In this document: positions 17,713 through 33,843 of the stretch, one piece after another
Layout: each line of letters begins with the position of its first letter
How positions within the stretch are numbered: the stretch's first letter is position 1
Assembly (NCBI GenBank): GCA_046757025.1
Contig: JBHHXN010000006.1
Location: forward strand, 1-64,000
Source: a bacterium
Lineage (GTDB): Bacteria > Zhuqueibacterota > Zhuqueibacteria > Oceanimicrobiales > Oceanimicrobiaceae
Length of the DNA: 64,000 bases
Direction of reading: 5' to 3'
The notes under the pieces: model-generated
What the model was told of the DNA's origin: nothing
Databases searched by the model: none
What the model saw: the letters and a program-made list of their open reading frames with translations, nothing else
Position numbers and translations under genes: made by a program

Positions 17713-17871
17713 TAGTGAATGACCGATAACGACCCGGTCTTCCCGAAGGCCTCCTGGCCGAGGTTGAATTCCTGCATGGCTCGGCGGGGCTTGTCCTGAA
17801 CTTTGTCGATGGGACGCCTTCGCGAAGAGGTTTTTAAATCGCGCATTTTTCTAGTTTCCGTTCAGACCCTG
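17713..17871 (+). repeat. Dispersed MITE-like repeat, family A copy 1
   Basis: Core TCTTCCCGAAGGCCTCCTGGCCGAGG...CTCGGC...CCTTCGCGAAGA shared with 35557-35691 and 48843-48977. Confidence 0.8.
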
Positions 17872-17985
17872 ACTAAAACCAAATTAAGCGATTTGGCGTT
17901 GAATTGTCTGATCATGGAGTTTAAGTGTTCAGAATAATGGGTGTTCACGCCTCAAGCGTGTTTTTCCCTCAACCCAGCAAACTGA

Positions 17986-18166
17986 AGAGACTGTGTGAAA
18001 AAGTGATATCGTGGCGAAAAATCCAATGCGCCATTATTGTCATCCCGCAACTGCGGGATATTTTTAATAAACAACACTTTACTTCAAAACAAAAAAGATT
18101 CCTCCTGCTTGTCCTACAATGCGGGGAAAGATAAAAGCCCGGAAGTTGACTTTTCACACAGGCTCT
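17986..18166. mobile_element. MITE-like element, family B copy 1
   Basis: Ends AGAGACTGTGTGAAAA / TTTTCACACAGGCTCT; same ends as 28030-28186; no transposase. Confidence 0.65.
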
Positions 18167-18262
18167 GAAGCTTTTACATTGTTCCCATTCGGTCAGGAAT
18201 CGCGCCTTTTAGGTAAAAGGATTTTTTTCGTTTGAATTGATTCACGCTAAAATTCATAAAAC

Positions 18263-18667
18263 ATGCAAAAACATTTTAAAAGAGACCTCAAATCACTGGA
18301 AAAGATCTTTACCTTCATCGATGCTTTTTGTGATCAGAATCAGATCGACGAATCGGTTTCGTTTACGCTCAAATTAGTCGTTGAAGAGTTGTTCACAAAT
18401 ATGGTTAAATACAATGACGTGAGTCAACATGCCATACTATTAGAACTCAGCAAGCAAGACCAAAATCTGATTATCCGATTAACCGATCCGGATGCGGAGG
18501 CATTTGACATCACCAAAACAAAAGATGTGAAAGTAGATAAGCACCTGCAAGATCGAAAAGTGGGCGGGCTGGGAATTCATTTAGTAAAAAAATTTGTGGA
18601 TCAGATTGATTACGAATATGAAAATCGAAAAAGCCAAATTACGTTAACCAAACATCTGGAGAAATAA
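18263..18667 (+). CDS. RsbW/SpoIIAB-like anti-sigma Ser kinase (HATPase_c-like)
   Basis: N-box VVEELFTNMVKY, G-box GGLGIHLVKKFVD. Confidence 0.9.
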   Translation: MQKHFKRDLKSLEKIFTFIDAFCDQNQIDESVSFTLKLVVEELFTNMVKYNDVSQHAILLELSKQDQNLIIRLTDPDAEAFDITKTKDVKVDKHLQDRKVGGLGIHLVKKFVDQIDYEYENRKSQITLTKHLEK

Positions 18668-18668
18668 A

Positions 18669-18953
18669 ATGTTCGACATTAAAATTGCTGAAAATGGTGA
18701 TATTTCCCTGTCGGGCCGATGGGACGCTTCGCAAGTTGAAAAGGCGCAAGTTGTTTTCGATACCATTGAAAAATCCACCACCGTCAATTTTAAGGATTTG
18801 GAATACATTTCCAGTGCGGGCTTGAGCGTGTTGCTGGGAACCCAAAAACGATTGAGTGAAATCGATGCCAGCCTGAAATTGATCAATTTGAACAAATATG
18901 TTGGAGATGTTTTCCGCTACGCCGGTTTTGATGCCGTCTTTGATATTTCTTAA
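18669..18953 (+). CDS. STAS-domain anti-anti-sigma factor (RsbV/SpoIIAA-like)
   Basis: LSGRWDAS and phosphoacceptor motif LEYISSAGL. Confidence 0.9.
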   Translation: MFDIKIAENGDISLSGRWDASQVEKAQVVFDTIEKSTTVNFKDLEYISSAGLSVLLGTQKRLSEIDASLKLINLNKYVGDVFRYAGFDAVFDIS

Positions 18954-18968
18954 TAACCTAAATTTTGT

Positions 18969-18997
18969 TTGACATTAGAGCTTGCTGTACTTATATT
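18969..18997 (+). promoter_or_regulatory. Putative sigma70-type promoter about 390 nt upstream of the ECF sigma gene
   Basis: TTGACA-17 nt-TATATT. Confidence 0.5.
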
Positions 18998-19387
18998 GTG
19001 TCAAATGTTTAACAAAACAAGCGCCCTACTCTTGTTTAACACTTTGTTGTTTGAATTTCAAATACTCTGGGGTGTATTTTAAACGGTAGGTTGGTTCCAT
19101 TGTATTCTTATTTCCTTTCTAAATTGATATCAAATCTTATTCCTGAAACCTGTTTCGCAAATTCATGTGGATTGATGATTTTTCAGGTCTGTTAAAATTG
19201 TCATCAATTTAATAAATTCAACATTTCCTGAAATGTACGAGTAAACATTTGCATCCAATTGTGCATGCTGTGTTTAAAATAGCATTTATCATGAAGCAAG
19301 CATGGACTATTGGGGAATGGGTTGTAGTCTTTTTATTTAAAAACTATCGCAATTATTTACCAACTTTTAAAAAGATAAATTGTAATT

Positions 19388-19945
19388 ATGATTGAACCAT
19401 CAGATAATGACTTGGTGAAAGTGTGTTTGAAGGGTAAAATAGCGGCGTTCGAAACGTTGATCGAACGCTATCAAAAACCCATCTTCAATTTGGCATTTAG
19501 GATGCTCAATGATTACGAGGATGCACAGGATGTCGCACAAACTGTTTTTGTGAAAGCCTTTGAAAAACTGGCTACGTTTAACTTCCGTTTCAAATTTTTT
19601 AGTTGGATTTACCGAATCGCAGTAAATGAATCACTCAATGTTATTAATCAGAGACAGCAAATCGAACAGTTAGATCACAATCTCAATCTCATTTCTGAAG
19701 AAAAATCACCTGCAGAGCATTATCAAAATCGCGAATTAAATCGAAAAATTCAAATGGCTCTAATGAATCTTAAAATCGATTACCGTGCGGTTATTGTGCT
19801 CAGATATTTTGAAGAATTCTCCTATAATGAAATGAGCTATATCCTTGAGATTCCTGAAAAGACGGTGAAGTCTCGTTTGTTCTCAGCGAGGCAGCAATTA
19901 CGAAAGATTTTATTACTGAAAGGGTATATTGAAAATGATGGATGA
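19388..19945 (+). CDS. ECF RNA polymerase sigma factor
   Basis: Region 2 DAQDVAQTVFVKAF...FFSWIYRIAVN; region 4 SYNEMSYILEIPEKTVKSRLFSAR. Confidence 0.95.
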   Translation: MIEPSDNDLVKVCLKGKIAAFETLIERYQKPIFNLAFRMLNDYEDAQDVAQTVFVKAFEKLATFNFRFKFFSWIYRIAVNESLNVINQRQQIEQLDHNLNLISEEKSPAEHYQNRELNRKIQMALMNLKIDYRAVIVLRYFEEFSYNEMSYILEIPEKTVKSRLFSARQQLRKILLLKGYIENDG

Positions 19946-20711
19946 GAAACAGATTGCGCTAATCAATAAAGCCATGGATGGAGAAATCTCTGAAGATGAA
20001 CAAGCGGAAGTTGAAGAGTTATTGTCCAAAAACGAGGAAGCCAGAACTTATCATGATGAGCTGCAAAAACTAAAATCGATGTTTGATGAGGTGGCGGCGG
20101 TCGAACCGCCCGCCGATCTGAAAAAGAATATCTTAAATATCATCCCGACTCATAAATATCAACAAACGCCGCAGAAAGGATTGTTCAGATCTTTTTTTGA
20201 AAACTTTAGATTCGATTTTAATTTCAACTATGTTTATGCTTTTGCTTTTGGCCTGGTGTCCGGTATTTTTATCTTTACTTTTTCCAACAACGTCATTCCG
20301 CCGAGTACTCGCGACATAAGTGGTGCCCTGATTGGCGAAAACGCAATGGAAAAATTCAGCACTCTTGAACAGCAGAAATTCAAAGTTGCTGAATTAACCG
20401 GTACCGTTGAATTAAAGTGGCATCAGAATGTATGTTTGCTTGCAATTGAGCTGAGCTCGAAAACGGCTGTCGATTTGGTTGTGAATTTTGATGACCTCCT
20501 TGTTCGCTTCCTGGGATTCCTTCCTCAAAAAATCGAAAAAATGGATTTAGGCGTAACAGAAAATACAGTAAACCTTTCGCATGGCGGAGCTTTGCGATAT
20601 GCTTTGTTGTTTGAAGTTCGGAACGAGCCAGAATCTTTGTTCGAATTAACGATTCTCTCTGCTGAAGGGGAAGTGCTATTTATAAAGGAATATTCATCGC
20701 CCGAAAAGTAA
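19929..20711 (+). CDS. Putative membrane anti-sigma factor
   Basis: Overlaps sigma stop; degenerate anti-sigma domain (KAMDGEIS...ARTYHDEL) lacking the zinc-binding cysteines; one TM (YVYAFAFGLVSGIFIFTF); extracytoplasmic C-terminal domain. Confidence 0.75.
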   Translation: MKMMDEKQIALINKAMDGEISEDEQAEVEELLSKNEEARTYHDELQKLKSMFDEVAAVEPPADLKKNILNIIPTHKYQQTPQKGLFRSFFENFRFDFNFNYVYAFAFGLVSGIFIFTFSNNVIPPSTRDISGALIGENAMEKFSTLEQQKFKVAELTGTVELKWHQNVCLLAIELSSKTAVDLVVNFDDLLVRFLGFLPQKIEKMDLGVTENTVNLSHGGALRYALLFEVRNEPESLFELTILSAEGEVLFIKEYSSPEK

Positions 20712-20722
20712 TTTCTGTCAAT

Positions 20723-20844
20723 TTGAGACTGTTCAATAATTAGGTTTTGCCAACACAGACATACAATATATAGACATAGTATCCACGACACATGCAATAT
20801 ATCGTATCCGTTTTCAGGAATTTTGAATTATTGAACAGTCTCAA
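20723..20844. mobile_element. MITE-like element with perfect 19-bp terminal inverted repeat
   Basis: TTGAGACTGTTCAATAATT (20723-20741) / AATTATTGAACAGTCTCAA (20826-20844). Confidence 0.6.
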
Positions 20845-20955
20845 TTTATGTCTTTTTAATGAAACAATCCCAACCTGTTTCACTCAAGATGGTATTTCGA
20901 GTAAGCAGTGTTAAAAAAATATTAAAACCAATATTCATAATTAATGGAGGTAACT

Positions 20956-21933
20956 ATGACTGACCAAAGGCGCTCGGTATTAAGTACCGGTTTAGGCAAA
21001 TTGTTAATGGGCGTGGCAGCATTAATCGTGGTGGTGGTAGTTTATTTCGCATTTTTTGAACCGTGGCCGGGCGGTGAAGACCTGTCTGGCACCATCGGCG
21101 GCGTTCAAAAAGCCAAAAAAGAGATCGCTGAACAGATCAGCGATGAGGATGTCACAATTCAGGATGCGGAAATTCAAAGCGTCGTGCAGAGCGAGGTGTT
21201 TCAAAAATTGATCACCGACAGCGATTTCCAGCATATTTTGGCTCGCGAAGATTTTCAGATGATGTTAGCCCGAGAGGACTTCCAGAACTTGCTGGCGCGG
21301 GAAGATTTTCAGCTCATGTTAGCCCGGGATGATTTCCAGCATCTGCTGGCTCGCGAAGATTTCCAAAATCTCCTGAATCGGGAAGATTTTCAACTGATGA
21401 TGGCTCGGGAAGATTTCCAGCATCTGCTGGCTCGGGATGATTTCCGCAATCTATTAGCCCGGGAAGATTTTCAGCTCATGCTGGAACGAGAAGACTTTCG
21501 CAACATGCTGGCACGTGAAGATTTTCAGAAAGTCATGGCCAGAGAAGATTTCAGGAAAGTCATGGAACGCGAAGACTTTCAAAATTTGCTGGCCAGAGAA
21601 GATTTTCAACATTTATTGGCCCGGGAAGATTTCCAGAATATGTTGGCACGAGAGGATTTTAGGCACCTGTTGGCGAGAGAGGATTTTCGCCATCTTTTGG
21701 CCCGGGAAGATTTTCGCATGATGCTGGCCCGCGAGGACTTTCAGCATTTACTGGCACGGGAAGATTTTCGGCACTTGCTGGCGCGAGAGGATTTTCAACA
21801 CCTTCTGGCCCGGGAAGATTTTCGCTTAATGATGGCACGGGAAGATTTTCAAAAAGTCATGGCGCGTGAGGATTTTCAACGTATGCTTGAAAGAGAAGAT
21901 TTTCAAAAAATTGCCACATCGGATGTGAAGTAA
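20956..21933 (+). CDS. Membrane-anchored tandem-repeat protein with 25 copies of a 9-aa (Q/R)xxxAREDF-type unit
   Basis: GGAGG RBS 5 nt before ATG 20956; N-terminal TM LLMGVAALIVVVVVYFAFF; repeats at 21229-21903. Confidence 0.9.
   Translation: MTDQRRSVLSTGLGKLLMGVAALIVVVVVYFAFFEPWPGGEDLSGTIGGVQKAKKEIAEQISDEDVTIQDAEIQSVVQSEVFQKLITDSDFQHILAREDFQMMLAREDFQNLLAREDFQLMLARDDFQHLLAREDFQNLLNREDFQLMMAREDFQHLLARDDFRNLLAREDFQLMLEREDFRNMLAREDFQKVMAREDFRKVMEREDFQNLLAREDFQHLLAREDFQNMLAREDFRHLLAREDFRHLLAREDFRMMLAREDFQHLLAREDFRHLLAREDFQHLLAREDFRLMMAREDFQKVMAREDFQRMLEREDFQKIATSDVK
21229..21903 (+). repeat. 27-bp coding tandem repeat x25, synonymously diverged
   Basis: Recurring CGNGA(A/G/T)GA(T/C)TT(T/C)-like unit every 27 nt, with codon usage varying between copies. 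Confidence 0.95.
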
Positions 21934-22009
21934 CGAGCAAAGAAATGCTCATTTTTACGGGCGAAAAGCCCTCCTATCATTAATTGTTTTAATCCAAGCT
22001 AAAACAGAC

Positions 22010-22051
22010 GGAGATGTTGTAGCCTCTCTATGGCATCTCCTTCTTATTTTT
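22010..22051 (+). terminator. Putative intrinsic terminator or attenuating hairpin after the repeat-protein gene
   Basis: GGAGATGTTGTAG / CTATGGCATCTCC stem (with G-U pairs) followed by TTCTTATTTTT. Confidence 0.55.
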
Positions 22052-22193
22052 AAATAAAGGGATAGCTGAAAATTGAGTATCTTTCCTGAGATGCGTGCTC
22101 TCTTTTTAGGATTCCTTGCCGGTGAAACCACCTTCCGGTTTGAATTGAAAATTAGTAAACATTCTGTACTTGAATAAATCACAAAAAAAGACT

Positions 22194-25139
22194 ATGAGAA
22201 AGGTTGTAACTGTAAGCGGGTTATTATGGTATTGGCTGTTTATCGTTTCATCTTTATTCGGCCAAATAAACACTTTAGAAACCGAAAATTTACGACTGAT
22301 TTATTTTAGTAAGATTCATTCGTTTCTGGTACCGCATGTGGCGCGTTGCTTTGAAAATTCCTTGAAATTTCATCGTGAACTTTTTGATTACACTCCTTCC
22401 GAAAAAATCACGGTGATGCTGCATGATTTTAATGATTTCGGCAATGCCGGCGCCGATGCCGTCCCCCGAAACAATATCGTCGTCGGCATCGCCCCATATC
22501 GCTATGTTTACGAAACTTCGCCCGCGAATGAGCGAATGAATTCCACCATGAATCACGAGCTGGCACACGTGGTGGCTATGGATAAAGCCAACAGCGTGGA
22601 TGGCTTTTTTCGAAAAGTGTTCTGGGGTAAAGTTGCCATCACACCCGATAATCCCATTTCCATGTTTTACAGTTTCTTAACCACGCCCCGTAGATATTCA
22701 CCGCGCTGGTATCACGAAGGCCTGGCGGTTTTTCTGGAAACATGGATGGCCGGAGGCCTGGGTAGAGCGCTTGGAGCGTACGACGAAATGGTTTTCAGGA
22801 CACTTGTAAGAGACCAGGGACGCATTTATGATCTGGTAGGGCTGGAATCGGAAGGAGTGAAAATCGATTTTCAGGTTGGCGTTAATTCCTACCTCTATGG
22901 CACTCGTTTTATGAGCTACCTTGCCTATGAATTCGGTCCGAAAAGTTTGATCCAGTGGGCTGCACGTACTAACGGCAGCCGGGGATATTTTGCTTCGCAA
23001 TTTAAAAAAACGTACGGCCTGTCCCTGAATGACGCCTGGGCGCAGTGGATTCGATGGGAAAACCAGTTTCAGCAATCCAACTTAAAAGCGATTCGAACGA
23101 ATCCTACTACGCCGATTCGGGAGATCTTAAATCAAGCCCTGGGCTCGGTCTCGCAAGCTTTTTATGACTCATCAACAGCGAAGGTTTACACGGCCATGCG
23201 CTATCCGGGTCAAATTGCGTCGATTGTGGAAATTGATTTTACCAGCGGCCGGACGCAGAAAATATGCGACATCAAGGGCCCCGCTCTGTATTATGTGGCT
23301 TCGCTTACTTATGACCCGCAGAACGCCACCATTTTTTATACCACTGACAACAACGATTGGCGGGACCTGCGCTCGATGAATGTCAAGACCCATCGCGGGA
23401 AAACGCTGCTTAAAGATGTACGAACCGGCGATATAGTATTCAATCAGGCTGATGGCTCCATCTGGGGAGTACGGCATTATAATGGCCTGTCAACCATCGT
23501 GCGCATTCCACATCCGTACAAAGAGTGGAATCAAATCTATTCCTGGCCTTACGGTCAGGATGTTTACGACCTCGCTATCAGTCCGGATGGCAAACTTTTA
23601 ACCGTCTCTTTGATTGACGTAAGTGGAAAGCAGAAGTTGATCCTCCTGGAAATTTCGAAATTGATGAGTGGAGACGCCTCGTTTAAGGTGCTGTTTGATT
23701 TTGAACATAATTCACCGGAGAATTTTGTTTTTTCACCAAACGGTAAATACCTTTACGGGACTTCCTATTATTCTGGCGTCTCAAATGTCTTTCGTTTTGA
23801 TTTGGCTGAAAATGACCTGTCCGTTATCAGCAATTGCGAAACCGGCTTTTTCCGGCCAGTGCCCGTTTCTCAGGATTCCCTTTTGGTTTTTCGGTACACC
23901 AGCAAAGGCTTTGTGCCGGTCATGATCGCCAGTACCCCCATCGAAAATGTTAGCGCCATCAAATTTTTGGGTCAGGAAACTATAGACAAACATCCCTTGG
24001 TTAAAAATTGGATGGCCGGAACGCCAACATCCGTGAATATCGATTCCCTGACAATCTATTCAGGCGCTTATCACGGCCTCGCGAATATTGGACTGGCCTC
24101 GGCTTATCCCGTGGTGGAGGGCTATAAAGATTTCGCTGCTTTAGGAATGCGGTTCAATTTTTCCGGTCCAGTGGGGTTGCATAATTTAGCACTCACCGCT
24201 TCTTATTCCATTGATAATGATTCACCGGATGATGAAAAACTTCATTTGCAGCTCAGTTACGATTATTTAAATTGGGAGATTTCAGCAAGATACAACGCTT
24301 CAAATTTTTACGATTTGTTTGGGCCCACCAAATCCAGCCGCAAAGGTTATTCTTTGAGTTTGCGCTACAAAAAATCGCTGTTGTACGACGGGCCTAAGCG
24401 TATGGGTTACACCGTTCATCTGGCCGGATTTGGGAATTTAGAAACCCTTCCCGATTTTCAAAACATCAGCGCGCCGTTCGATAAATTTTTAACTTTCAAT
24501 GTGAATTATTACTACCAGGATATCCGCAAATCACTTGGCGCGGTTGACGATGAGAAGGGTTTTAAGTGGCAAATCGTCGCCAACAACAATTACGTGAACA
24601 AAAAGCTGTTTCCACGGGCTTTTACCACTTTAGATTTGGGAGTGCCACTACCTTTTGGGCACTCCTCCATCTGGCTTCGAAGCGCAGTGGGGCAGTCGGC
24701 CAGCAAGCGCAGTGACCGTCTGGTGCAATTTGGACAGTTTTTCTTCGGCGGTTTTGGCAATAATTGGGTGGACCATCTTGGCGAGAAAAGATATCGCGAA
24801 CATTACAGCTTTCCCGGACTCGAGCTCAATGAGGTAGGAGGGACCAATTTTGGTAAATTCATGTTGGAATGGAATCTGCCGCCGTTGAGATTTCGACGGG
24901 TGGGTTCGCCCTCGCTATATGCTACCTGGCTGCGTACCACGCTATTCGCCTCCGGCCTGACCACTAATTTCGATGACAAAAGCGTTCGGCGCGAGCTTTT
25001 TAATTTTGGTGGACAAATCGATGTGCGATTCAGCATGCTGTCACATTTGAAAGCGACTTTGTCGTTCGGCTACGCAGCCGCAATTGAACGACATCAGGAT
25101 GTTTCCAAAGAATTTATGGTCTCCTTGAAAATATTGTAA
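22194..25139 (+). CDS. Exported protein: gluzincin-like metallopeptidase domain + TolB/PD40-like beta-propeller + probable outer-membrane beta-barrel
   Basis: Signal peptide; NHELAH (HExxH) then PRWYHEGLA; propeller repeats LAISPDGK, FVFSPNGK; C-terminal alternating aromatic beta-strands; start at MRKVV inferred. Confidence 0.75.
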   Translation: MRKVVTVSGLLWYWLFIVSSLFGQINTLETENLRLIYFSKIHSFLVPHVARCFENSLKFHRELFDYTPSEKITVMLHDFNDFGNAGADAVPRNNIVVGIAPYRYVYETSPANERMNSTMNHELAHVVAMDKANSVDGFFRKVFWGKVAITPDNPISMFYSFLTTPRRYSPRWYHEGLAVFLETWMAGGLGRALGAYDEMVFRTLVRDQGRIYDLVGLESEGVKIDFQVGVNSYLYGTRFMSYLAYEFGPKSLIQWAARTNGSRGYFASQFKKTYGLSLNDAWAQWIRWENQFQQSNLKAIRTNPTTPIREILNQALGSVSQAFYDSSTAKVYTAMRYPGQIASIVEIDFTSGRTQKICDIKGPALYYVASLTYDPQNATIFYTTDNNDWRDLRSMNVKTHRGKTLLKDVRTGDIVFNQADGSIWGVRHYNGLSTIVRIPHPYKEWNQIYSWPYGQDVYDLAISPDGKLLTVSLIDVSGKQKLILLEISKLMSGDASFKVLFDFEHNSPENFVFSPNGKYLYGTSYYSGVSNVFRFDLAENDLSVISNCETGFFRPVPVSQDSLLVFRYTSKGFVPVMIASTPIENVSAIKFLGQETIDKHPLVKNWMAGTPTSVNIDSLTIYSGAYHGLANIGLASAYPVVEGYKDFAALGMRFNFSGPVGLHNLALTASYSIDNDSPDDEKLHLQLSYDYLNWEISARYNASNFYDLFGPTKSSRKGYSLSLRYKKSLLYDGPKRMGYTVHLAGFGNLETLPDFQNISAPFDKFLTFNVNYYYQDIRKSLGAVDDEKGFKWQIVANNNYVNKKLFPRAFTTLDLGVPLPFGHSSIWLRSAVGQSASKRSDRLVQFGQFFFGGFGNNWVDHLGEKRYREHYSFPGLELNEVGGTNFGKFMLEWNLPPLRFRRVGSPSLYATWLRTTLFASGLTTNFDDKSVRRELFNFGGQIDVRFSMLSHLKATLSFGYAAAIERHQDVSKEFMVSLKIL

Positions 25140-25153
25140 GAAGTGCCCCAAAG

Positions 25154-26158
25154 ATGACCGAATTTATGCGCATGGTTGTCAGCATCCTGCCGGTGTTTTT
25201 GTTTCTGGCGGCGCTGATCGTGTTCGACAGCTACAAACTTGTAAAATTGCAAACCGTGGTACTGACCATTCTGATAGGGTGTTTAGCCGCATTGATTTGT
25301 TTTTTAGTAAACAATCAATTGTACTCACAATTGGAGGTCGATTTCAAAACATTCATTCGATATGTTTCGCCGTTCACTGAGGAAAGTGTGAAATCGATTT
25401 ACATCATCTATTTGCTGAGAAAGCATAAAGTGGGTTTTCTGGTGGATTCAGCTATCTACGGTTTCGCTATCGGTACAGGTTTTGCTTTCATCGAAAACGT
25501 ATTTTATTTACATTCGGTACAAAATTCAAATTTTCTGATCTGGGTGGTACGCGGTTTCGGCACCGCCGTGATGCATGGAACGGCAACGGCATTTTTGGCG
25601 GTGTTTTCAAAAAGTTTGTCTGATTGGAACCAATCCGTAAAGTGGTTTCTGTTATTGCCCGGACTGCTGGCTGCGGTGTTCACGCATTCATTTTACAATC
25701 ACTTTTTTTTGCCACCGGCGGTCATCACGCTGGCCTTTGTTGTCTTGTTACCAATGGTTTTTGTGGCGCTCTTTGAAAGGAGTGAAAAGATAACTCGCAA
25801 GTGGTTGGGAGTGGGATTTGACACCGATGTGGAATTGCTTGAAATGATCGTTTCGGGTAAAATATCAGAAACCCGCATCGGCAAATACCTGGACAGTTTG
25901 AAAAACCACTTTCCCGGAGAAGTTGTTGCCGACTTGTTTTGTCTGCTGAGAATAAACTTGGAACTGGCTATTCGTGCAAAAGGCATTTTGCTGATGCGAC
26001 AATCGGGGTTTAAAGCCGCAGCGGCTCCTGACATAAAACAAAAATTGGAAGAATTACAGTACCTTGAAAAAAGTATAGGCAGAACCGGCAAACTCGCCAT
26101 CCTGCCGTTTTTACATACCAGTCATCGCGATCTCTGGCAGTTGTACATGGTCAAATAA
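25154..26158 (+). CDS. prsW: PrsW family intramembrane metalloprotease
   Basis: Multi-TM; PFTEESVK (EExxK), GFAFIENVFY (FxxxE), VMHGT, HSFYNH (HxxxN). Confidence 0.85.
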   Translation: MTEFMRMVVSILPVFLFLAALIVFDSYKLVKLQTVVLTILIGCLAALICFLVNNQLYSQLEVDFKTFIRYVSPFTEESVKSIYIIYLLRKHKVGFLVDSAIYGFAIGTGFAFIENVFYLHSVQNSNFLIWVVRGFGTAVMHGTATAFLAVFSKSLSDWNQSVKWFLLLPGLLAAVFTHSFYNHFFLPPAVITLAFVVLLPMVFVALFERSEKITRKWLGVGFDTDVELLEMIVSGKISETRIGKYLDSLKNHFPGEVVADLFCLLRINLELAIRAKGILLMRQSGFKAAAAPDIKQKLEELQYLEKSIGRTGKLAILPFLHTSHRDLWQLYMVK

Positions 26159-26299
26159 TCGTTGACAATATAGAGAAATATTCATAATTTTTTAACACCT
26201 CAACTGAGCGATTCATCATCGGGGGATTAGGGTGTTCAAGTTTTGCTTGAGGGAAGATATCAGACCACATTTTTTTCATTTTTAAAATGAGAGGAAACT

Positions 26300-27643
26300 T
26301 TGTTTACTTCGTCATCTGATCAGAAAGACCTGGCGGATAATGGCTTGACTACAGATGTTAAAAACATCATAGCAAAAAAAGACGATGAGATACAAAAACT
26401 TAAATCTGCGGTTGAAGAGTTAAGCGTATTAAACGATTTAGCTATTGATGCCAGCCTCTCCTTGGAAGTGGATCAGATGCTGGACATCATCGTGGAAAAA
26501 TCCATCAAGGCTGTGAAAGCAGAACAGGGCTCCATTTTGCTGGTTACGGAACAGGCTGATTCGCCATTAAAAACGCTCATTCGGCAGGCAGATGCAAGGA
26601 GCCGATTGCTCACTTACCGGGTGGGTACGCACATCACCGGCTGGGTGCTCAAAAATCAAAAACCGCTGATGATTGAAGATCTGGCAAACGACGACCGATT
26701 CCGGCCCACGGAGCAGGAAAGCAAAGAAATCCGTTCTGTTCTGTGTGTCCCCATCCGCTTAAAAGCCAAAATCATCGGTATTCTCATGGTGACCAACAAA
26801 AAGACCATGCAACCGTTTAGCGAAAGCGATTTGCGGCTGCTCTCCATCATCGCAGCGCAATCCGGCCAGCTCATTCGCAATTCACAACTGCAGCAGGAAG
26901 CCCTGGAAAAGAAACGATTGCAAGACGAATTAGCGGTGGCGCGCAAAATTCAACTTAGCTTACTGCCGAAAACCAGCCCGGAGATTGAGAATTTTGAAAT
27001 TGCCAATTACTTTAATCCGGCTACCGAGGTAGGCGGCGACTATTTCGACTATTTTCAGTTCGATGATTCACAATTTGGTCTTGTGCTGGCGGACGTCTCC
27101 GGACATGGGCCGTCTGCTGCCCTAGTGATGACGTTGGTTAAAGGTATTTTACACGCCATCACCCACAAATTCAGCTCTCCCGATACCTTGTTGGCGGAAA
27201 TGAATAAAATTCTCAGCGAGGTCATTCCCAAAGAGGTGTTTGTGACAATGGTGTTTTTAGTATTTGATCTGAAAGAAAACACACTGCGATTTTCCAATGC
27301 CGGGCATAATCCTATATTACACTATTCTCTCGATGGTAAGTCCTGTGGTAAAATAGAGCTCAAGGGCCCCGCACTCGGATTAACCAGTTTATCCGTGTAT
27401 CAGCAAATGGATATCCCCCTGTTTTCCGGGGACGTTATTTTAATTTACACCGACGGCGTGACCGAAGCTTTCAATCAAAAAGGTGACATGTTCGAAGAAG
27501 AGCGACTGCGGCAGGCTTTAAAACAGACCGCGTCGTACGACGCCCGCGCCATCATCGAAAATCTGCGAATGGCGCTTTATACATTTAAAGACGGCGCTCC
27601 GCAGGCTGATGACGAAGCCATGATCGCCGTAAAAATCAAGTAA
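26300..27643 (+). CDS. GAF + SpoIIE/PP2C phosphatase (RsbU-like)
   Basis: TTG start behind GAGAGG; GAF (SVLCVPI...NKK...FSESDLRLL); VGGDYFD, ADVSGHG, YTDGVTEA, QADDEA. Confidence 0.92.
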   Translation: MFTSSSDQKDLADNGLTTDVKNIIAKKDDEIQKLKSAVEELSVLNDLAIDASLSLEVDQMLDIIVEKSIKAVKAEQGSILLVTEQADSPLKTLIRQADARSRLLTYRVGTHITGWVLKNQKPLMIEDLANDDRFRPTEQESKEIRSVLCVPIRLKAKIIGILMVTNKKTMQPFSESDLRLLSIIAAQSGQLIRNSQLQQEALEKKRLQDELAVARKIQLSLLPKTSPEIENFEIANYFNPATEVGGDYFDYFQFDDSQFGLVLADVSGHGPSAALVMTLVKGILHAITHKFSSPDTLLAEMNKILSEVIPKEVFVTMVFLVFDLKENTLRFSNAGHNPILHYSLDGKSCGKIELKGPALGLTSLSVYQQMDIPLFSGDVILIYTDGVTEAFNQKGDMFEEERLRQALKQTASYDARAIIENLRMALYTFKDGAPQADDEAMIAVKIK

Positions 27644-28029
27644 TATCAAATCAGTTTGATTTTTTAGTGTTAGAACGAAAGTCCGTTTTTGTCATTCTAC
27701 AGAAAATACAACTACCGATTTATTCTCAAAGTTGTAAACAGATTATGCAAATCAAATAATTGTGAGCTATTTTTAAAAGAACATCCCAGAGTACAGATTA
27801 GGACCGATCTTATGAAATATTCTCAAAAAAAATTCAATGAAAACAGTCTATGCTTGCTTTTTTGCGAATTTGGTTTTCTCACTTCAAGCATATTCTAGTG
27901 ATTTGTCTTCTGCTGGGTAGGCACTACTGACTTTGAAGAGCGGTCAGAGGTTATAATGAAAAATTGGTGGCATGTCTTTTAAATATAAAATACAATGTAA
28001 AATTCTGTAAAAGAAGGTGTTCTACCTTT

Positions 28030-28186
28030 AGAGGCTGTGTGAAAACACGCAAACTACGCGTCTGTCATTCTGCAGGCATCTTTTTTGTTTTGACGTAAAG
28101 TGCTGTTTATTAAAAAGATTTATCCAGAATGACATTGACGGTGAAATTGGTTATAAGTTGACATTTCGATTTTTCACACAGCCTCT
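28030..28186. mobile_element. MITE-like element, family B copy 2
   Basis: Perfect 16-bp TIR AGAGGCTGTGTGAAAA / TTTTCACACAGCCTCT; internal GTCATTCTG...CAGAATGAC palindrome. Confidence 0.7.
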
Positions 28187-28283
28187 TTAGGCGGCAGCAG
28201 GCCGAAGCTTGATCAACTCTCCACAAGTTCATTTTGCAGATGTCTAAAAAAAGCAATTATCATCGATAAAAGGAGCGTTTCCT

Positions 28284-29600
28284 TTGATAGAAATCAAAAA
28301 TTCAAAAAACCATGAAATAGCCAAGCTTACCGACGAAAACAACCGGCTAAAGAAATCCATTGAAGACCTGAAAATTATCAATGAACTGGCAAAAATTATC
28401 AGCTCAACCATTCCCGTGGAGCAGATTTTAAATAAAGTCACCACCGTGTCGGTTAGAGCCATTGGCGCGGAGCAGGGTACCATTTCATTGTTGAATGAAC
28501 AGGAAGAAGAGGATGAATTCAAAACGTTGATTCGAAAGGTCGATGCCTCAAAAGTGACCAACAAATATCGACTGGATGATGATTTGAGCGGCTGGATGAT
28601 TAAATATCGTAAACCGTTGATGATCACTAACTTTAATCAGGACCGTACCTTCAAAAGGCAATACGAAAATTCGGAGAAAATTCGCTCAATATTGAGTGTA
28701 CCGTTGGTATGCAAAGGCAAACTCATCGGCGTTTTGAATCTATTCAATAAAAAACAGGATGGCCAGTTTACGCTTGATGATCAACGCCTGTTATCCATCA
28801 TTGCATCGCAGTCGGCACAGGTGATTGAAAATGCCCGGTTATATGAAGAAGAGGAGCAGCTGCGTCTCATTGAGCAAGAGCTGAAAACGGCCCATGCCAT
28901 TCAGGTGGGACTGCTGCCGAAAGAGAGTCCGCGAATTAGCGGATTTGATGTGGCCGGCCGAAGTTATCCGGCCACAGAGGTAGGCGGCGACTATTTTGAT
29001 TTTATTGAACTGGATGACCACCTCTGGGGCATTGCGTTGGGCGATGTTTCGGGCAAAGGCATTCCGGCCGCGTTGCTGATGTCCAATTTACAGGCTACGC
29101 TGCGGAATCAGGCCTTGCACAACGCTTCTCTGGTTGAATGCATAGAAAAGGCTAATCAATTTTTGTGTTACAACACTGAATCCACCAAATTCGTCACGCT
29201 TTTTTGTGGAAAACTAAATTCAGAAAAGCGAACTTTTCAATTTGTCAATGCTGGACACAATTTTCCATTTTACCTTAACACCAAAGGGGAATTTGAAACG
29301 TTGGAAATCGGCGGGGTGGTACTCGGCATGATTCCCGAGTTTACCTTTGATCAAGGCGAGGTGCATTTGCAGCCTGGAGAAATTATTGTGGTTTATTCCG
29401 ACGGAGTGACCGAAGCAGAAAACGAACTAGAGGAATTGCTCGGTGAGGAACGGTTAAAAAACATTATTTTGGATAATCGTCATTTAAGTGCTCAGGAACT
29501 GGTTGAAATTATTTATCAAAAAGTGAAAGAATTTAGCGGTGCGGCGAAACAGGACGATGACATCACCATCGTCGTATTGAAAGCAGAAAACGCTCATTAA
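28284..29600 (+). CDS. GAF + SpoIIE/PP2C phosphatase (RsbU-like), second paralog
   Basis: TTG start behind AAGGAG; SILSVPL...NKK; VGGDYFD, GDVSGKG, YSDGVTEA, QDDDIT. Confidence 0.92.
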   Translation: MIEIKNSKNHEIAKLTDENNRLKKSIEDLKIINELAKIISSTIPVEQILNKVTTVSVRAIGAEQGTISLLNEQEEEDEFKTLIRKVDASKVTNKYRLDDDLSGWMIKYRKPLMITNFNQDRTFKRQYENSEKIRSILSVPLVCKGKLIGVLNLFNKKQDGQFTLDDQRLLSIIASQSAQVIENARLYEEEEQLRLIEQELKTAHAIQVGLLPKESPRISGFDVAGRSYPATEVGGDYFDFIELDDHLWGIALGDVSGKGIPAALLMSNLQATLRNQALHNASLVECIEKANQFLCYNTESTKFVTLFCGKLNSEKRTFQFVNAGHNFPFYLNTKGEFETLEIGGVVLGMIPEFTFDQGEVHLQPGEIIVVYSDGVTEAENELEELLGEERLKNIILDNRHLSAQELVEIIYQKVKEFSGAAKQDDDITIVVLKAENAH

Positions 29601-29639
29601 TAACGGATTCGGATAGCAAAAAGTCATTTGTCGAGTTGT

Positions 29640-30017
29640 ATGAAGATCATCTGTTTCCGGCTAATCTCAGGCATTTTTTGCACCCTCCTTCTGATCATGT
29701 TTAGTTGTAAAAACCGGCCTCCCGAAGATATCACCGATCCCGGACAATTGCTATATCTGGGCTATGTCAAAAAAAAAGTGAATTGTTCAAAATGTCACGG
29801 ACCGGACGGTCAGGGTGGATTGGACGCACCTGATATTCGGCCGGCTTTTAAGAAATTTGGCGAAAAAAAAATTGTCACGTTTATCCTGGAAGGCAAAGGC
29901 AAAGGTAAAAATGCCATGCCGCCGTTTGCCGATGAGATCACTTCTCTGGAGCTGGAGCAATTGATGCGCTTTCTGGAGACGCTTAAACCGCTTCCCGACA
30001 GCTTACAACCGGAGTAA
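29640..30017 (+). CDS. Monoheme cytochrome c lipoprotein
   Basis: Lipobox-like MFSC; heme motif CSKCH; distal Met in NAMPPF. Confidence 0.85.
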   Translation: MKIICFRLISGIFCTLLLIMFSCKNRPPEDITDPGQLLYLGYVKKKVNCSKCHGPDGQGGLDAPDIRPAFKKFGEKKIVTFILEGKGKGKNAMPPFADEITSLELEQLMRFLETLKPLPDSLQPE

Positions 30018-30019
30018 GT

Positions 30020-30060
30020 AAAAAAAGCGGCTATTCAATATCAAGAACAGCCGCTTTTCT
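30020..30060. terminator. Bidirectional intrinsic terminator
   Basis: AAAAGCGGCT...AGCCGCTTTT between the cytochrome c gene and the convergent kinase/peptide unit. Confidence 0.75.
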
Positions 30061-30158
30061 AATTGATCAAACCCTTCGCCTTTCACTGAAGGCAACAGTC
30101 GTCCTTCCCTGACAACAGAAAAGTCAATTTAATTTTGGGCATCAATCGAAAACATCAT

Positions 30159-30329
30159 CTATGGTGGTGGTTCCGTTGGATCGGCCAAAGATGCTGGGGG
30201 GGGTTCATTCGGATCTGCTTGAGCTGACGCCGGCGGTGGTTCGTTGGGATCCGCTTTTCCTTTTGAAAAAAGTCGAGACTTTAAACTCGACCACTTCCCC
30301 ATTTTCTCTTCGGCAGTTTTTTTATCCAT
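30159..30329 (-). CDS. 56-aa repeat peptide absent from the ORF track: MDKKTAEEKMGKWSSLKSRLFSKGKADPNEPPPASAQADPNEPPPASLADPTEPPP
   Basis: Hand translation; near-perfect Shine-Dalgarno AAAGGAGGTGA just upstream; starts 18 nt after the kinase stop; three ADP(N/T)EPPP repeats with different codons. Confidence 0.85.
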   Translation of the reverse strand: MDKKTAEEKMGKWSSLKSRLFSKGKADPNEPPPASAQADPNEPPPASLADPTEPPP

Positions 30330-30347
30330 GAAATTCACCTCCTTTCA

Positions 30348-33113
30348 TTACTTTTTAGAGTTCGCTGGCAAATTTGAAATTTTATTATTTAAAAATGCAA
30401 CTTTTTGTAAATTACCATCCGCTCCGGCCCAAAAATCAAGAGCTAAGCGGTAGGTGTGAAAAGCCTCTTCCGGCGCGTTATCTTTTTCATAAGCCTCTGC
30501 TAATCCTAACAGCGCATAGACATTCTGTGGATTGAATTGCAAGGCTAATTTATACGTTTCAATGGCATTCTGAAGTTGACCAGCTTGTGAATAACCATCC
30601 GCTAATGCTTTCAAATAGAATGACCGGTTCAATGGAAACAAATCCAGAGCCTTTTTAAAAGAGACCTCAGCTTCATCATAATCTTCTGCAAACAAGGAGA
30701 CCATCCCTTGCAAATGATGCAAAAACCACCTTCCTTCCAGCTCTCCCAACGACGCGAAGGATCGCTCAAGAATGGCGATTTCGTGGAAAATTTCTTGTCG
30801 GTTGCCATTTTCCAGCAAGATTAAACCACGCAGCCAGTGCGCTTCCAGATTGTTGGGATTAGTAATGATGGCATCATCAATGGTCGTTTCCGCAACTGGC
30901 AGGTTGCCCGTTCTTAAATGCACCATGGCCAGATTGGTATAACCCATGGATTTAAAATAATTACCGGCAGAAGTATTGACATACTTCGTTAAAACTTTTT
31001 CTGCTTGCGAGTATTTTCCCTGACCCGACAACGCCTGCGCAAGTCGAATGGGTACGTATTTAAAATCCGGCTGCAAGGCGAGAATGCGGTCACAAATAGT
31101 CACGGCTTCTTCATATTCGCCGATGAGTACCAGGATTTCCGCCATGGAGTCGAGCGGATTGACGTCGGTGGGATTCAACTGCATTAACTTATCCATCATG
31201 GCCAGGGCTTTTTCCTTTTCACCTTTGGCCAGAAAAGCATAACCAAGCGTGTTGTAGGCAAGCACGTAGGTCGAATCCAGCTCGATGGACTTTTGAATTT
31301 CCGAAATGCCCGCATCGATTTGACGAAATTTTCGGTATTGCGTCCAGCCATATTTATAATGCGTAGAGGCTTTAAAGGGGTTGATTTTGAGCAACCTTTT
31401 CTGATGAGATGCATACTCCTGCCAGCGATGTTCAATCCGGGCTTCATTACTTAAGTATTCCAATCTCATTTCAAGAGAAAGATTTTCAATATACGGTTTA
31501 CCGCTTGATAACACTTGTTTGGCTTTGTTTCGATTCCCGATGAGGGAATATTGCCACGCCAGGTAATAATACGGTTCGATGAATGTGGAATCCAGGGAGA
31601 TTGCTTTATTCAAGAGGGCAATGCTCTCCTTGTGCCGCAGATCCAGTGCAGCATCCTTGCCTTCTACGTAATAGCGAAATGCGTCCAGGGAGGAAGTGGT
31701 CAAAGACGCCACGCTGCTTTCTACCACATTTTCAGCAGCTTCAAAATTCAACACCCCGACCAATTGCGAAGTAAACTCATCGACGAGATTATAAAGCTGG
31801 CTGATATTGCTCTCCAGGGGTTTCAATGACGCAACAGACGTGCCTTTACGGCTGTCTAAAATCTCCGCCTCCACCTGAATGGTTTCGTTTTGTTTGTTGA
31901 GTTTACCGACAATGACCTTTTGGGCATTGGCTTTTTGCGCAATTCGAATAGCTTCTTCCCGTGTGACGTTTTTGTTTTGGATGCCTAAATTCTGCATGAT
32001 CTGATTCCTCTGTTCCGCGCTCAAAACGCGTATGGTGGAATCCTGGGACAAATCGGTATTCAATAAATCCATAAAAGCACCACTCAGCCACGACCAGTCT
32101 TCATCGACATTGTCCAGATAAAAAGGCATAATGGCGATAGCCGTACCCACCTCGTGCATTTTGCTTTCCGGCCTTAGTATGGCAAACAAAACGATGAGCA
32201 GAAGACCTAAAGAAAGACCGCCGAGTGTCGCAAACATTCGTTTTCGACTGAATTTTGGTTTTGGCTTGGGGGAAGTCTGCGCGGTTTTTGTTGCCCTTTC
32301 ATCGAGCAACTCTTTCAATGTTAACTCAATTTCTCTGGCGTTTTGAATTCGGACCTCCAAGTCTTTTGCCAGAGCTTTGGTCACTAACTGTTGGTATTTA
32401 TCAGATATCTCAGGTCGGATGCTGCAAATGGCTTCGGGTTCCTCATTGATGATGGCATAACCGATGGCCGCGCTGTATTCGCCTTGAAACGGTTGTCTGC
32501 CAGTACCGAGCTCGTACAAAACCGTACCCAGCGAAAAGATATCGCTGCGGTGATCGACTGGCAATCCCTGTAATTGCTCGGGAGACATGTAAGCCGCGGT
32601 GCCGATAACGCTTTCCTGCCGGGTGATTTGCGTCAGGTTTGCGACCTTTGCCAAACCGAAATCGAGAATCTTGACTTGACCGTCTTTCGTTAAGATGATA
32701 TTGCCCGGCTTGATATCCCTGTGAATGATGCCCTTTTGGTGCGCTTCTGCCAATCCCCGGGCAATTTGCACACCGATGGCATAAACTTTATCTATAGGGA
32801 TTTCAGATTTAAGCAGAAGGCTTTGCAGCGTATCGCCAGGGTAGTAGCCCATGCTGATAAACATGTAATCGTCGGATTCGTCGATTTCATACACCATGGC
32901 AATGTTTGGATGCTCCAAAGCAGAAATGGCTTTCGCTTCTTGAACGAATCTCTGACGAAACTCTGAGTCAGCAAGAAATTCTTTGTTTAGAAATTTCAGA
33001 GCAACCAGCCGGTCCAGTTTTAAGTCCTTTGCCTTATAAACGACACCCATGCCGCCGCTGCCAATTTCTTCAAGTATTTTATAATGAGATAACTGTCGTC
33101 CGACCAAGTTCAT
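30348..33113 (-). CDS. Membrane Hanks-type Ser/Thr protein kinase with C-terminal TolB-N-like domain and TPR repeats
   Basis: IGSGGMGVVY, VALKFL, HRDIKPGN, DFGLAK, YMSPEQ; TM LGGLSLGLLLIVLFAIL; IAIMPF domain; many TPR-like units. Confidence 0.95.
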   Translation of the reverse strand: MNLVGRQLSHYKILEEIGSGGMGVVYKAKDLKLDRLVALKFLNKEFLADSEFRQRFVQEAKAISALEHPNIAMVYEIDESDDYMFISMGYYPGDTLQSLLLKSEIPIDKVYAIGVQIARGLAEAHQKGIIHRDIKPGNIILTKDGQVKILDFGLAKVANLTQITRQESVIGTAAYMSPEQLQGLPVDHRSDIFSLGTVLYELGTGRQPFQGEYSAAIGYAIINEEPEAICSIRPEISDKYQQLVTKALAKDLEVRIQNAREIELTLKELLDERATKTAQTSPKPKPKFSRKRMFATLGGLSLGLLLIVLFAILRPESKMHEVGTAIAIMPFYLDNVDEDWSWLSGAFMDLLNTDLSQDSTIRVLSAEQRNQIMQNLGIQNKNVTREEAIRIAQKANAQKVIVGKLNKQNETIQVEAEILDSRKGTSVASLKPLESNISQLYNLVDEFTSQLVGVLNFEAAENVVESSVASLTTSSLDAFRYYVEGKDAALDLRHKESIALLNKAISLDSTFIEPYYYLAWQYSLIGNRNKAKQVLSSGKPYIENLSLEMRLEYLSNEARIEHRWQEYASHQKRLLKINPFKASTHYKYGWTQYRKFRQIDAGISEIQKSIELDSTYVLAYNTLGYAFLAKGEKEKALAMMDKLMQLNPTDVNPLDSMAEILVLIGEYEEAVTICDRILALQPDFKYVPIRLAQALSGQGKYSQAEKVLTKYVNTSAGNYFKSMGYTNLAMVHLRTGNLPVAETTIDDAIITNPNNLEAHWLRGLILLENGNRQEIFHEIAILERSFASLGELEGRWFLHHLQGMVSLFAEDYDEAEVSFKKALDLFPLNRSFYLKALADGYSQAGQLQNAIETYKLALQFNPQNVYALLGLAEAYEKDNAPEEAFHTYRLALDFWAGADGNLQKVAFLNNKISNLPANSKK

Positions 33114-33829: not shown

Positions 33830-33843
33830 TAGCGAGGCAAATC

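Follow-up and report, generated by a model that had tools for sequence, protein, structure and literature searches.

Extracytoplasmic function (ECF) sigma factors offer bacteria a major route for sensing the state of their envelope, and few of the mechanisms that activate them are known in detail. In Bacillus subtilis, PrsW is needed for cleavage at site 1, and the site-1 product has to be trimmed before it is cleaved at site 2; RsiW, the anti-sigma factor concerned, is of the zinc-binding (ZAS) type (Paget 2015, PMC4598750). Here we describe a gene cassette from a stretch of 64,000 nucleotides (the window; contig JBHHXN010000006.1 of assembly GCA_046757025.1, positions 1 to 64,000, forward strand) of a bacterium of the Zhuqueibacterota, Oceanimicrobiaceae. 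Its genes are denoted by letters: P for a GAF-PP2C phosphatase, W for an RsbW-like protein, V for a STAS protein, S for an ECF sigma factor, A for an anti-sigma factor, R for a repeat protein, B for an Omp85-type zincin/propeller protein, and X for PrsW. Judging from its sequence and that of its relatives, the cassette is genuine and conserved, a variant of ECF regulated-proteolysis signalling that apparently has not been described before. We lean slightly towards the view that its regulated proteolysis spans the entire envelope and serves to control one dedicated ECF sigma factor.

The sigma-W/RsiW/PrsW/RasP system of B. subtilis is the one that the cassette is predicted to resemble most closely in its working. 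Both have an ECF sigma factor, a single-pass anti-sigma factor, a PrsW that keeps the acidic and histidine residues invariant in its family, and M50 site-2 proteases, which the genome of the window encodes. The cassette differs in encoding PrsW itself, in the cytoplasmic domain of that PrsW (which is conserved), in an anti-sigma factor without zinc motif, and in its diderm host. To the sigma-W and sigma-E schemes it adds an outer-membrane Omp85 protein that bears a peptidase, a repeat protein that carries a motif of the anti-sigma factor and can apparently replace its ectodomain, and a sigma-B-type partner switch beside an ECF sigma factor. Moreover, its sigma factor and PrsW both score below the equivalog cut-offs.

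Signalling by an outer-membrane barrel, as known from FecA, provides a second likeness. In FecA/FecR/FecI and in the Escherichia coli sigma-E/RseA/RseB/DegS/RseP system, as in the cassette, one unit combines an ECF sigma factor with an anti-sigma factor of the inner membrane and a barrel protein of the outer membrane that has a periplasmic domain. In addition, the extra periplasmic partner of the cassette may shield the anti-sigma factor as RseB does. However, B is no TonB-dependent transducer but joins a zincin and a propeller to an Omp85-type barrel, a DegS-like PDZ protease is absent, and R is membrane anchored, repetitive, and unrelated to RseB. An ‘AND’ logic of two signals has been described (Paget 2015, PMC4598750). 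By score or by defining features, the cassette belongs to neither the sigma-W nor the FecA system.

Three further groups are relevant. The partner switches RsbU/RsbP-RsbV-RsbW of sigma-B and SpoIIE-SpoIIAA-SpoIIAB of sigma-F likewise encode together a PP2C phosphatase that has a sensor domain, a kinase of the HATPase_c_2 type, and a STAS protein in which a serine is conserved. In the cassette, on the other hand, the only nearby sigma factor is an ECF (group 4) one, the G1 box of the kinase is atypical, and the module cosegregates with PrsW. The ‘WD40-Omp85’ cluster, catalogued but unstudied, has the architecture that B fits, namely a TolB-like propeller N-terminal to an Omp85 barrel; this likeness is one of architecture. 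The cluster has been read as a BamA-BamB-like fusion, and the words ‘peptidase’ and ‘PrsW’ are absent from the main text of that article (Heinz and Lithgow 2014, PMC4104836). Finally, PrsW fused to PilZ, cNMP-binding, FHA, or Zn-ribbon domains has been proposed to act as a signal-gated ‘signaling peptidase’ (Zhang et al. 2012, PMC3482391). X similarly joins a PrsW core to an added cytoplasmic domain, but this domain matches no family and its partner would be a separate RsbW/STAS pair.

Literature searches, including the combinations PrsW and Omp85, PrsW and RsbW, and Omp85 with anti-sigma factor, ECF, and propeller, found no published description of the cassette. The main text of the ECF reclassification of Casas-Pastor 2021 names no PrsW, STAS, HATPase, or Omp85; in the part of its supplement that was available, PrsW comes up for Firmicutes groups alone, the one mention of STAS concerns ECF19, and a matching ECF group could stand in the remainder. 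The first-pass annotation of this region, made from the DNA alone, had not recognized the combination as a named system, and our searches turned up no name for it either.

That annotation had listed the genes from W to a convergent Ser/Thr kinase gene (18263-33113) as one candidate system. All of them are present and as described, as judged from the open reading frame (ORF) listing and the Pfam and NCBIfam scans of the window on which our gene calls and domains are based. The unit that is conserved is smaller, comprising the eight genes P, W, V, S, A, R, B, and X at 18263-27643. Its real and conserved nature stood up: surveys of the neighbours of B and R homologues, which could have refuted it by turning up scattered genes or homologues on their own, did not do so. 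The extent first given did not hold for the cytochrome c gene, the second phosphatase, and the repeat peptide, and the kinase-TPR gene is an occasional neighbour at most. The phosphatase gene at 26300-27643 gives matches of 460-609 bits to the phosphatases of other cassettes; for cytochrome c there was no match in any locus fetched (the set of 17 loci and the own-phylum set, both introduced below).

The cassette is widespread, mostly in uncultured lineages, and is annotated as ‘hypothetical’ throughout. Of 8000 candidates that were scored, at least 4979 are related to B at E up to 0.001, and the best 120 of these (the window’s own record excluded) are 55-64% identical, every name given being ‘hypothetical’. 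Scanning one genome per species yielded 17 loci, labelled as KSB1/Zhuqueibacter, Calditrichia, Cytophagia/Bacteroidales/Sphingobacteriia, and Gammaproteobacteria/Woeseiaceae, and wherever flanks are present in this set the gene order P-W-V-S-A-R-B-X recurs. Within its own phylum, B is found in 54 of 167 genomes (32 of the 105 of good quality), so that its distribution is patchy and accessory-like; the genomes counted include G162, which is unpublished. Forty own-phylum places of B were fetched. Five of them (L054-L058, in G068, G057, G116, G083, and G094) hold a full-length paralogue, 31-34% identical, that lacks R, PrsW, sigma factor, switch, and any other partner.

Neighbours were counted over 48 nonredundant orthologous loci, with those that have enough flank as denominators. 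R accompanies B in 38/40 loci, S in 29/31, and A in 28/33, where three of the five misses are A-R fusions; X follows with 19/23, W and V with 18/22 each, and P with 13/19. R upstream of B is the tightest pair of the cassette. A second set, independent of the first and collected by searching metagenomes with R instead of B, comprises 80 loci; it gave R then B in 30 of the 31 assessable loci and the same gene orders. Because the same order recurs across phyla, the association is far beyond chance, and we consider it somewhat probable that the cassette is a self-contained, horizontally spread signalling unit for one dedicated ECF sigma factor. Second copies also exist, namely an R-B pair alone in L025 (G008:C154) and B alone in L053 (G154:C20), with one cassette-type PrsW per genome.

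S is an ECF (group 4) sigma factor by its Sigma70_r2 (53 bits) and r4_2 (50.3 bits) domains and by a TIGR02937 score of 101.5 against a cut-off of 42.9. SigW is its best equivalog, although S stays below the cut-offs concerned (NF007223, 129.2 vs 209; TIGR02948, 113 vs 243). A consists of an N-terminal anti-sigma domain, one transmembrane (TM) helix, and a periplasmic domain of about 140 amino acids (aa). We found no zinc motif of the ZAS type: the N-domain encoded in the window has no Cys/His pair, and an alignment of 25 homologues has no conserved Cys/His column. The sole invariant residue of these homologues is G129, which lies in an hxG[TAS][IML] motif a median of 15 residues past the TM helix.

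A similar motif recurs in R. In A it reads [ST][DN][LF]xG[TAS][IML]G, and in R, at a median of 10 residues past the helix, [ED][DE][LV]xGT[IVL][GA][GP]; its glycine is invariant in 25/25 A and in 25/25 R sequences, in the latter as the only residue besides the start Met. By these alignments, R and A have in common a juxtamembrane h-x-G-T-[ILM]-G motif that is predicted to lie 10-15 residues outside the membrane.

All R proteins have a short cytoplasmic N-terminus, one TM helix, and a juxtamembrane domain of roughly 50 residues (GTIGGVKKAEKYRxEQ...DVxL...IQxLLQ), whose profile finds 1088 representative clusters with E up to 0.001 among 1.84 billion proteins. In the window this part is followed by 25 nonapeptide units of exact period, anchored on [ED]DF, with a period of 27 nucleotides (nt) by TRF. 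Between lineages, the period (9, 11, or 12 residues), the length of R (228 to 725 residues), and the sequence of the repeat all vary while the helical pattern is kept (AREDFQxLL, AFLANDQMR, LAKPEVAAL, ASDSFRNAL, FGALFGDAR), and some relatives carry degenerate repeats (L018). Among the 25 units of the window, aa identity is 0.69 and third-codon-position identity 0.44, and identical residues use the same codon in 47% of pairs; since protein identity exceeds third-position identity, the array is old and under purifying selection rather than the result of fresh slippage. An AlphaFold2 model places one helix of 7-8 residues in each unit (pLDDT 70-80 in the array, pTM 0.48). Foldseek against the PDB gave no hit to this model at E up to 0.001, the best being designed helical repeats and TAL effectors with TM-scores of 0.31 or less.

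Two irregularities of R genes may be mentioned here. At 21811, one contig of run X3 is shorter than the window by exactly 27 nt, that is, one R unit; copy-number variation between samples or an effect of short-read assembly could account for this hint. A look through sequencing runs listed four DNA data sets with this sequence, all from one study of a hydrothermal vent metagenome and one of them perhaps its source, and no RNA data set. In Calditrichia, one R gene (L004:8547-9597) is broken by frame changes in the array and has many stops when its frame is continued, which may reflect an assembly error or a pseudogene.

Gene fusions bear on the role of R. In three loci of one genus (L048, L051, and L052) there is no separate A, and the N-domain of A is instead fused to the helix, juxtamembrane domain, and repeats of R; a sister genome (L033) has A and R as separate genes. 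Such fusions also make up 9 of the 80 metagenome loci, the six with visible context reading S-[A~R]-B. Furthermore, an anti-sigma N-domain is present, with differing junctions, on 22 of the best 150 representatives of the R family, and the periplasmic domain of A on none. Because A-R fusions recur, the membrane and periplasmic part of R can probably replace the ectodomain of the anti-sigma factor. Together with the motif, they point to R as an anti-sigma-like sensor or substrate rather than cargo. The idea that R is exported, which the first-pass annotation had proposed, finds nothing in its favour here.

B was modelled by AlphaFold2 from 29 homologues (pLDDT 82.5, pTM 0.82), with strands assigned by DSSP. 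It starts with a signal peptide and a mainly helical domain with an HExxH motif, continues with a six-bladed TolB-like propeller, and ends in a C-terminal barrel of 16 strands. H121, E122, and H125 (HELAH) as well as E175 (WYHEG) are invariant in the 29 sequences, a gluzincin-like arrangement; Peptidase_MA_2 matches 8 of the 29, weakly (best E 0.0013). For the propeller, the comparison with TolB gives a Z of 23.0 over 239 aligned residues with a root-mean-square deviation (rmsd) of 2.8, and a Foldseek E of 5e-10. The barrel (residues 633-980 of the model) is of the Omp85/TpsB kind by its strand number, and it aligns with Deinococcus radiodurans BamA (8xnb_B) with a Z of 19.6 over 293 residues (rmsd 4.2); Pfam Omp85_2 matches 10 of the 29 family members at E up to 0.1. 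Fold searches with the whole model are dominated by the propeller. Pfam detects no TonB-dependent receptor domain in B, nor does it detect a POTRA domain, for which no domain-level fold search was made; the model has about 40 residues of short helices between propeller and barrel. Against sequences of the PDB, the B profile gave only two weak propeller matches (E 0.046 and 0.16) and no solved relative.

A motif of the ECF type, xCCAACTTTT-N12-TTGTAxTT (AAC-N17-GTA), precedes R in 11/11 loci of the first set, and leave-one-out matrices found a second copy directly at the sigma gene. This second copy (P1) is present in 23/25 own-phylum loci with S and in 26/37 metagenome loci. Strong sites of the copy before R (P2) are found in 20/32 own-phylum R loci (the 12 misses include three fusions and several loci with R at a contig edge) and in 41/72 metagenome R loci. 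Four loci without S and A (L084, L085, L086, and L092) have no site of 12 bits or more; absence of the motif where the sigma factor is absent is the control expected of a sigma-linked promoter. These results fit the earlier proposal that the ECF sigma factor drives the repeat protein.

The 5.96-Mb genome of the window was also scanned as a whole, using a matrix built from 40 sites of other genomes. P1 of the window is the top match with 29.0 bits, ahead of a runner-up of 24.3 bits and a best match of 24.9 bits in the reversed genome. As only P1 exceeds the reversed-genome null, little or nothing beyond the cassette seems to be under the control of the sigma factor. A further regulon member (C144:3002), suggested by a first small matrix, was given up, for the better matrix puts no site but P1 above that null.

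A terminator-like element separates R from B. A hairpin of -9 kcal/mol or lower with a T-run occurs in the R-B gap of 30/39 loci, compared with 158/780 shuffles, and in 23/39 loci the hairpin reaches -15 kcal/mol or lower. Because it sits between R and B, R is probably made in excess over B and X. Within lineages, the stem itself is conserved: it reads GGAGATGCCAT...ATGGCATCTCC in KSB1-like loci and GGATACAACGG...CCGTTGTATCC in Gammaproteobacteria (gaps of L007, L008, L011, L014, L017, L009, and L022-L025 compared), which is more than a plain terminator needs. Rfam had no match in 17500-30400 at E up to 1.

X is the sole PrsW of the genome. E76, E77, E114, N115, H141, H178, and N182 are invariant in 40 homologues, although X stays below the NCBIfam PrsW equivalog (32.3 vs 225). 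Its C-terminal cytoplasmic domain of roughly 130 aa is more conserved than the membrane core (mean identity to the window residue 0.60 vs 0.47, 40 sequences). No Pfam family matches this domain, and an Atlas search yields PrsW clusters and helical bundles with TM-scores below 0.5. Nine further PrsW loci of the phylum, which are of shorter or different types, lack the partner genes and do not match this C-terminal domain.

The switch proteins W, V, and P look functional, as far as their sequences tell. In V, YISSxG[LI] is found in 26/26 sequences with both serines invariant, as in STAS proteins of partner switches; the phosphorylatable position is presumably the one that we assign from SpoIIAA/RsbV. 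W has E42, N46, D82, R98, G101, and G104 invariant in 26 cassette homologues, which include the N-box (E42/N46) and the G2 box (G101/G104). Its G1 box is atypical, reading DxDVxxFD in most of the 26 instead of DxGxxFD. In P, the SpoIIE and GAF domains are both complete.

The cassette can come apart into the submodules [S-A-R-B], [R-B], and [X-W-V-P], and the places where it does so are informative on what the switch acts on. The four loci without X are also without W and V. Two of these loci belong to G157 and G166, where the missing genes are found together as X-W-V-P, 8.5 kb off or on another contig, and X adjoins W in L031, L032, L038, L040, L041, L065, and L094. The sigma-less variants from sediment (L084, L085, L086, and L092) have R-B and then a convergent X-V-W, without S-A; in place of S-A they have a divergent regulator of the Trans_reg_C-TM-TPR (ToxR/CadC-like) type, for example at L085:4374-6521 (-). 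Among the 48 nonredundant loci, there is no case of W-V kept with S-A while X is absent. With modest confidence we therefore propose PrsW, rather than the sigma factor, as the target of the partner switch, since W-V-(P) go with PrsW in split cassettes. The first-pass annotation had seen the switch as a second input to the system; the module is indeed conserved and an input plausible, but in split cassettes it travels with PrsW and not with the sigma factor.

In the mechanism that we favour, A or the A-R fusion would hold the sigma factor at the inner membrane. PrsW would cut A and R at or near their common G-T motif (site 1), while B, anchored in the outer membrane, would bind or trim the long helical repeat ectodomain of R, so that the system would respond to how the outer membrane or the periplasm is faring. 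The sigma factor would then be released by an M50 site-2 protease and would raise S-A from P1 and, from P2, much R but little B and X; R would exert feedback by shielding or by competing as a substrate. A cytoplasmic signal would come from the GAF-PP2C/RsbW/STAS switch, most likely via the cytoplasmic domain of PrsW.

Several points weigh against this mechanism, which is read at every step from motifs, fusions, and the order of genes. The site proposed here is close to the membrane, whereas PrsW of B. subtilis cuts RsiW at a distance from it. Type Vd Omp85 proteins export their N-terminal domain, and the peptidase and propeller of B may likewise not face the periplasm. R, as a product that the sigma factor itself induces and that is probably abundant, would suit the role of an effector no less than that of a feedback element. 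P2 of the window scores only 12.6 bits by the matrix. P1 poses a puzzle as well, since the usual ECF promoter geometry would put the transcription start a few bases (about 4-6) after the A of the sigma ATG. The coupling of PrsW with the switch, moreover, rests on few lineages, namely family f15, two f1 genomes, and one sediment clade. Lastly, W-V adjoin S in most loci, an order that fits a direct action on the sigma factor too.

The last point leads to an alternative that we consider possible, if on the unlikely side: RsbW could be a second, cytoplasmic anti-sigma factor of the ECF sigma factor, freed from it by the unphosphorylated STAS protein, so that sigma integrates envelope and cytoplasmic signals. 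The commonest order, with W-V directly upstream of S, agrees with this, and so do the invariant N-box, G2 box, and two STAS serines. On the opposite side stands the way in which W-V-(P) remain with PrsW rather than S-A in split or sigma-less cassettes; furthermore, ECF sigma factors are without region 3, which SpoIIAB contacts in sigma F. Kinases of the RsbW type are known to act as anti-sigma factors on group 3 sigma factors, which agrees with the alternative; partner switching, however, has been described for that same group (Paget 2015, PMC4598750). The only ECF link of the RsbW/STAS type in the accessible part of the Casas-Pastor 2021 supplement is a STAS neighbour of ECF19 subgroups. Predicting a complex of two RsbW-like copies with the ECF sigma factor gave a score of 0.24 against a mark of 0.32, without controls, and this counts neither for nor against binding.

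It seems plainly unlikely, in turn, that R, B, and PrsW are the output of the system, as the export idea of the first-pass annotation would have it. The sigma factor would then induce an abundant helical-repeat envelope protein under stress, which PrsW releases and B processes, anchors, or exports, to form a protective or spacing structure. P2 before R and the hairpin after it would give much R with little B and X, the pattern of a structural subunit with its machinery, and one can add the R-B pair duplicated by itself in L025, the purifying selection on the repeats, the lack of a clear other sigma target in the genome-wide scan, and the protein translocators among Omp85 relatives (Heinz and Lithgow 2014, PMC4104836). 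Fusing a sigma-binding domain to R, however, makes sense for a sensor or degron and little for exported cargo. R also shares its juxtamembrane motif with the anti-sigma factor and has a membrane anchor without a secretion domain, and the model of B has no visible POTRA.

Very improbable in our eyes is that R is a polyprotein precursor, whose array is cut by the B zincin into many copies of a lineage-specific nonapeptide that leaves via the barrel and serves as a signal, the autoregulated sigma factor adding positive feedback. The exact period, the lineage-specific sequence, and the purifying selection of the repeats would suit such a precursor, as would a dedicated peptidase that is always encoded beside R. 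But the period differs by lineage and it is the helical pattern, not the peptide, that is conserved; units in one protein differ at 3-4 of 9 positions and are degenerate in L018, no receptor is evident, and the fusions with an anti-sigma domain argue for a signalling ectodomain. A neighbourhood due to chance or to local shuffling of operons, without common function, may hold for the cytochrome c gene, the second phosphatase, and the repeat-peptide ORF as purely local neighbours, but for the cassette the probability is practically negligible, already contradicted by the same order in four differently labelled phyla and 80 metagenome loci with common promoters and gene fusions.

Regulated proteolysis of a dedicated ECF sigma factor across the envelope, the reading to which we return, invites a bolder version that we put forward tentatively and regard as rather doubtful: a trans-envelope AND gate. 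The partner switch would gate PrsW via its cytoplasmic domain instead of a sigma factor, the Omp85-anchored zincin would read or shorten R as a long, fast-evolving helical-repeat ‘fuse’ that spans the periplasm, and both would be needed before the G-T site of R and A is cut and sigma is freed. The same protease core could then also serve regulators of another kind that are tethered to the membrane, the Trans_reg_C-TM-TPR protein of the sigma-less variants being an example. If it is true that the switch gates PrsW, this would represent a new target class for partner switching and a function for PrsW in diderm bacteria, in which little is known of what it does. These ideas are directly testable by way of the two promoters, the G-T motif, and the A-R fusions that occur in nature.

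Table 1. Features of the cassette and its surroundings in the window, with coordinates and the basis of each assignment.
Feature	Position	Strand	Basis or remark
W, RsbW-like anti-sigma-type serine kinase	18263-18667	+	Pfam HATPase_c_2, 65.7 bits
V, STAS anti-anti-sigma-type protein	18669-18953	+	Pfam STAS_2/STAS; TIGR00377 50.2 bits, just below cut-off 53.45
P1, ECF-type promoter motif CCAACTTTT-N12-TTGTAATT	19359-19390	+	final three bases are the ATG of the sigma gene
S, ECF sigma factor	19388-19945	+	Sigma70_r2 and r4_2
A, membrane anti-sigma factor	19938-20711 (alternative start 19929)	+	weak NCBIfam anti-sigma match, residues 18-81; no Pfam family
P2, weaker copy of the P1-type promoter motif, 5' of the R gene	20869-20900	+	regex match, same spacing as in 10 other loci
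R, repeat protein, TM helix and 25 nonapeptide repeats AREDFQxLL	20944-21933	+	repeats by sequence and TRF
Terminator-like hairpin (13 pairs) and T-run, R-B gap	22010-22050 (hairpin 22010-22040)	+	top-ranked terminator-like site of 17500-30400
B, outer-membrane zincin/propeller/barrel protein, 981 aa (989 aa from 22170)	22194-25139	+	alignment and AlphaFold2 model
X, PrsW-family intramembrane protease	25154-26158	+	Pfam PrsW-protease, 74.3 bits (gathering score 23.5)
P, GAF-PP2C (SpoIIE-type) phosphatase, cassette orthologue	26300-27643	+	SpoIIE 161.8 bits and GAF
Second GAF-SpoIIE phosphatase, local paralogue	28284-29600	+	GAF and SpoIIE domains
Cytochrome c	29628-30017	+	domain scan
Ser/Thr kinase-TPR gene, convergent	30348-33113	-	domain scan
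ORF of 59 aa, three ADPNEPPPAS-like repeats, lying downstream of the kinase gene	30159-30338	-	ORF only

Among the neighbouring genes, the Ser/Thr kinase with a membrane helix and a TPR ectodomain deserves a few words. Counting relatives by similarity beyond the kinase domain, we find such genes near 4 of about 23 well-flanked loci (L004, L020, L034, and L049) and near L067-L069, in cassettes of different families; the expectation is roughly 7 in 100, derived from 26 kinase ORFs in 6 Mb. The gene is thus a neighbour more often than expected but not constantly. As a member of the cassette it was not retained, the association being suggestive only, and it may be a facultative accessory sensor. 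The segment following the membrane helix in the Trans_reg_C-TM-TPR regulator of the sigma-less variants resembles that of the kinase-TPR protein of the window. For the 59-aa ORF, nothing in the window indicates a real gene beyond the ORF itself. Just downstream, 33449-35559 encodes a BlaI-type repressor and then a BlaR1 (M56) protein with two TonB_C domains, another membrane-protease signalling pair, and in L024 BlaI-type and BlaR1 genes follow B-X-P.

The start of the sigma gene has a peculiar geometry. In most loci its ATG stands in a fixed register, 3 nt after the TTGTAnTT block, and the 32-mer of P1 ends exactly in this ATG in 9/11, 17/23, and 19/26 cases of the first, own-phylum, and metagenome sets, respectively; homology places the start of the protein at the same ATG. 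A leaderless mRNA or an unusual start geometry comes to mind. In view of the usual ECF geometry, a ‘leaderless sigma mRNA’ is only one possible reading of the fixed ATG.

The intergenic regions of the window hold some features of their own. Between the STAS and sigma genes lies an AT-rich gap of 435 nt (18954-19387), which is unusual given that other loci have less than about 100 nt there, and inside it, at 18969-18997, is a near-consensus promoter of the sigma-70 type (TTGACA-17-TATATT). Between the A gene and P2 we find a 22-nt inverted repeat (20720-20741 and 20826-20847), with arms that are 95% complementary and 84 nt apart. Both arms recur on another contig in three runs, where they enclose 73 different letters, and the whole looks like a small element resembling a miniature inverted-repeat transposable element (MITE).

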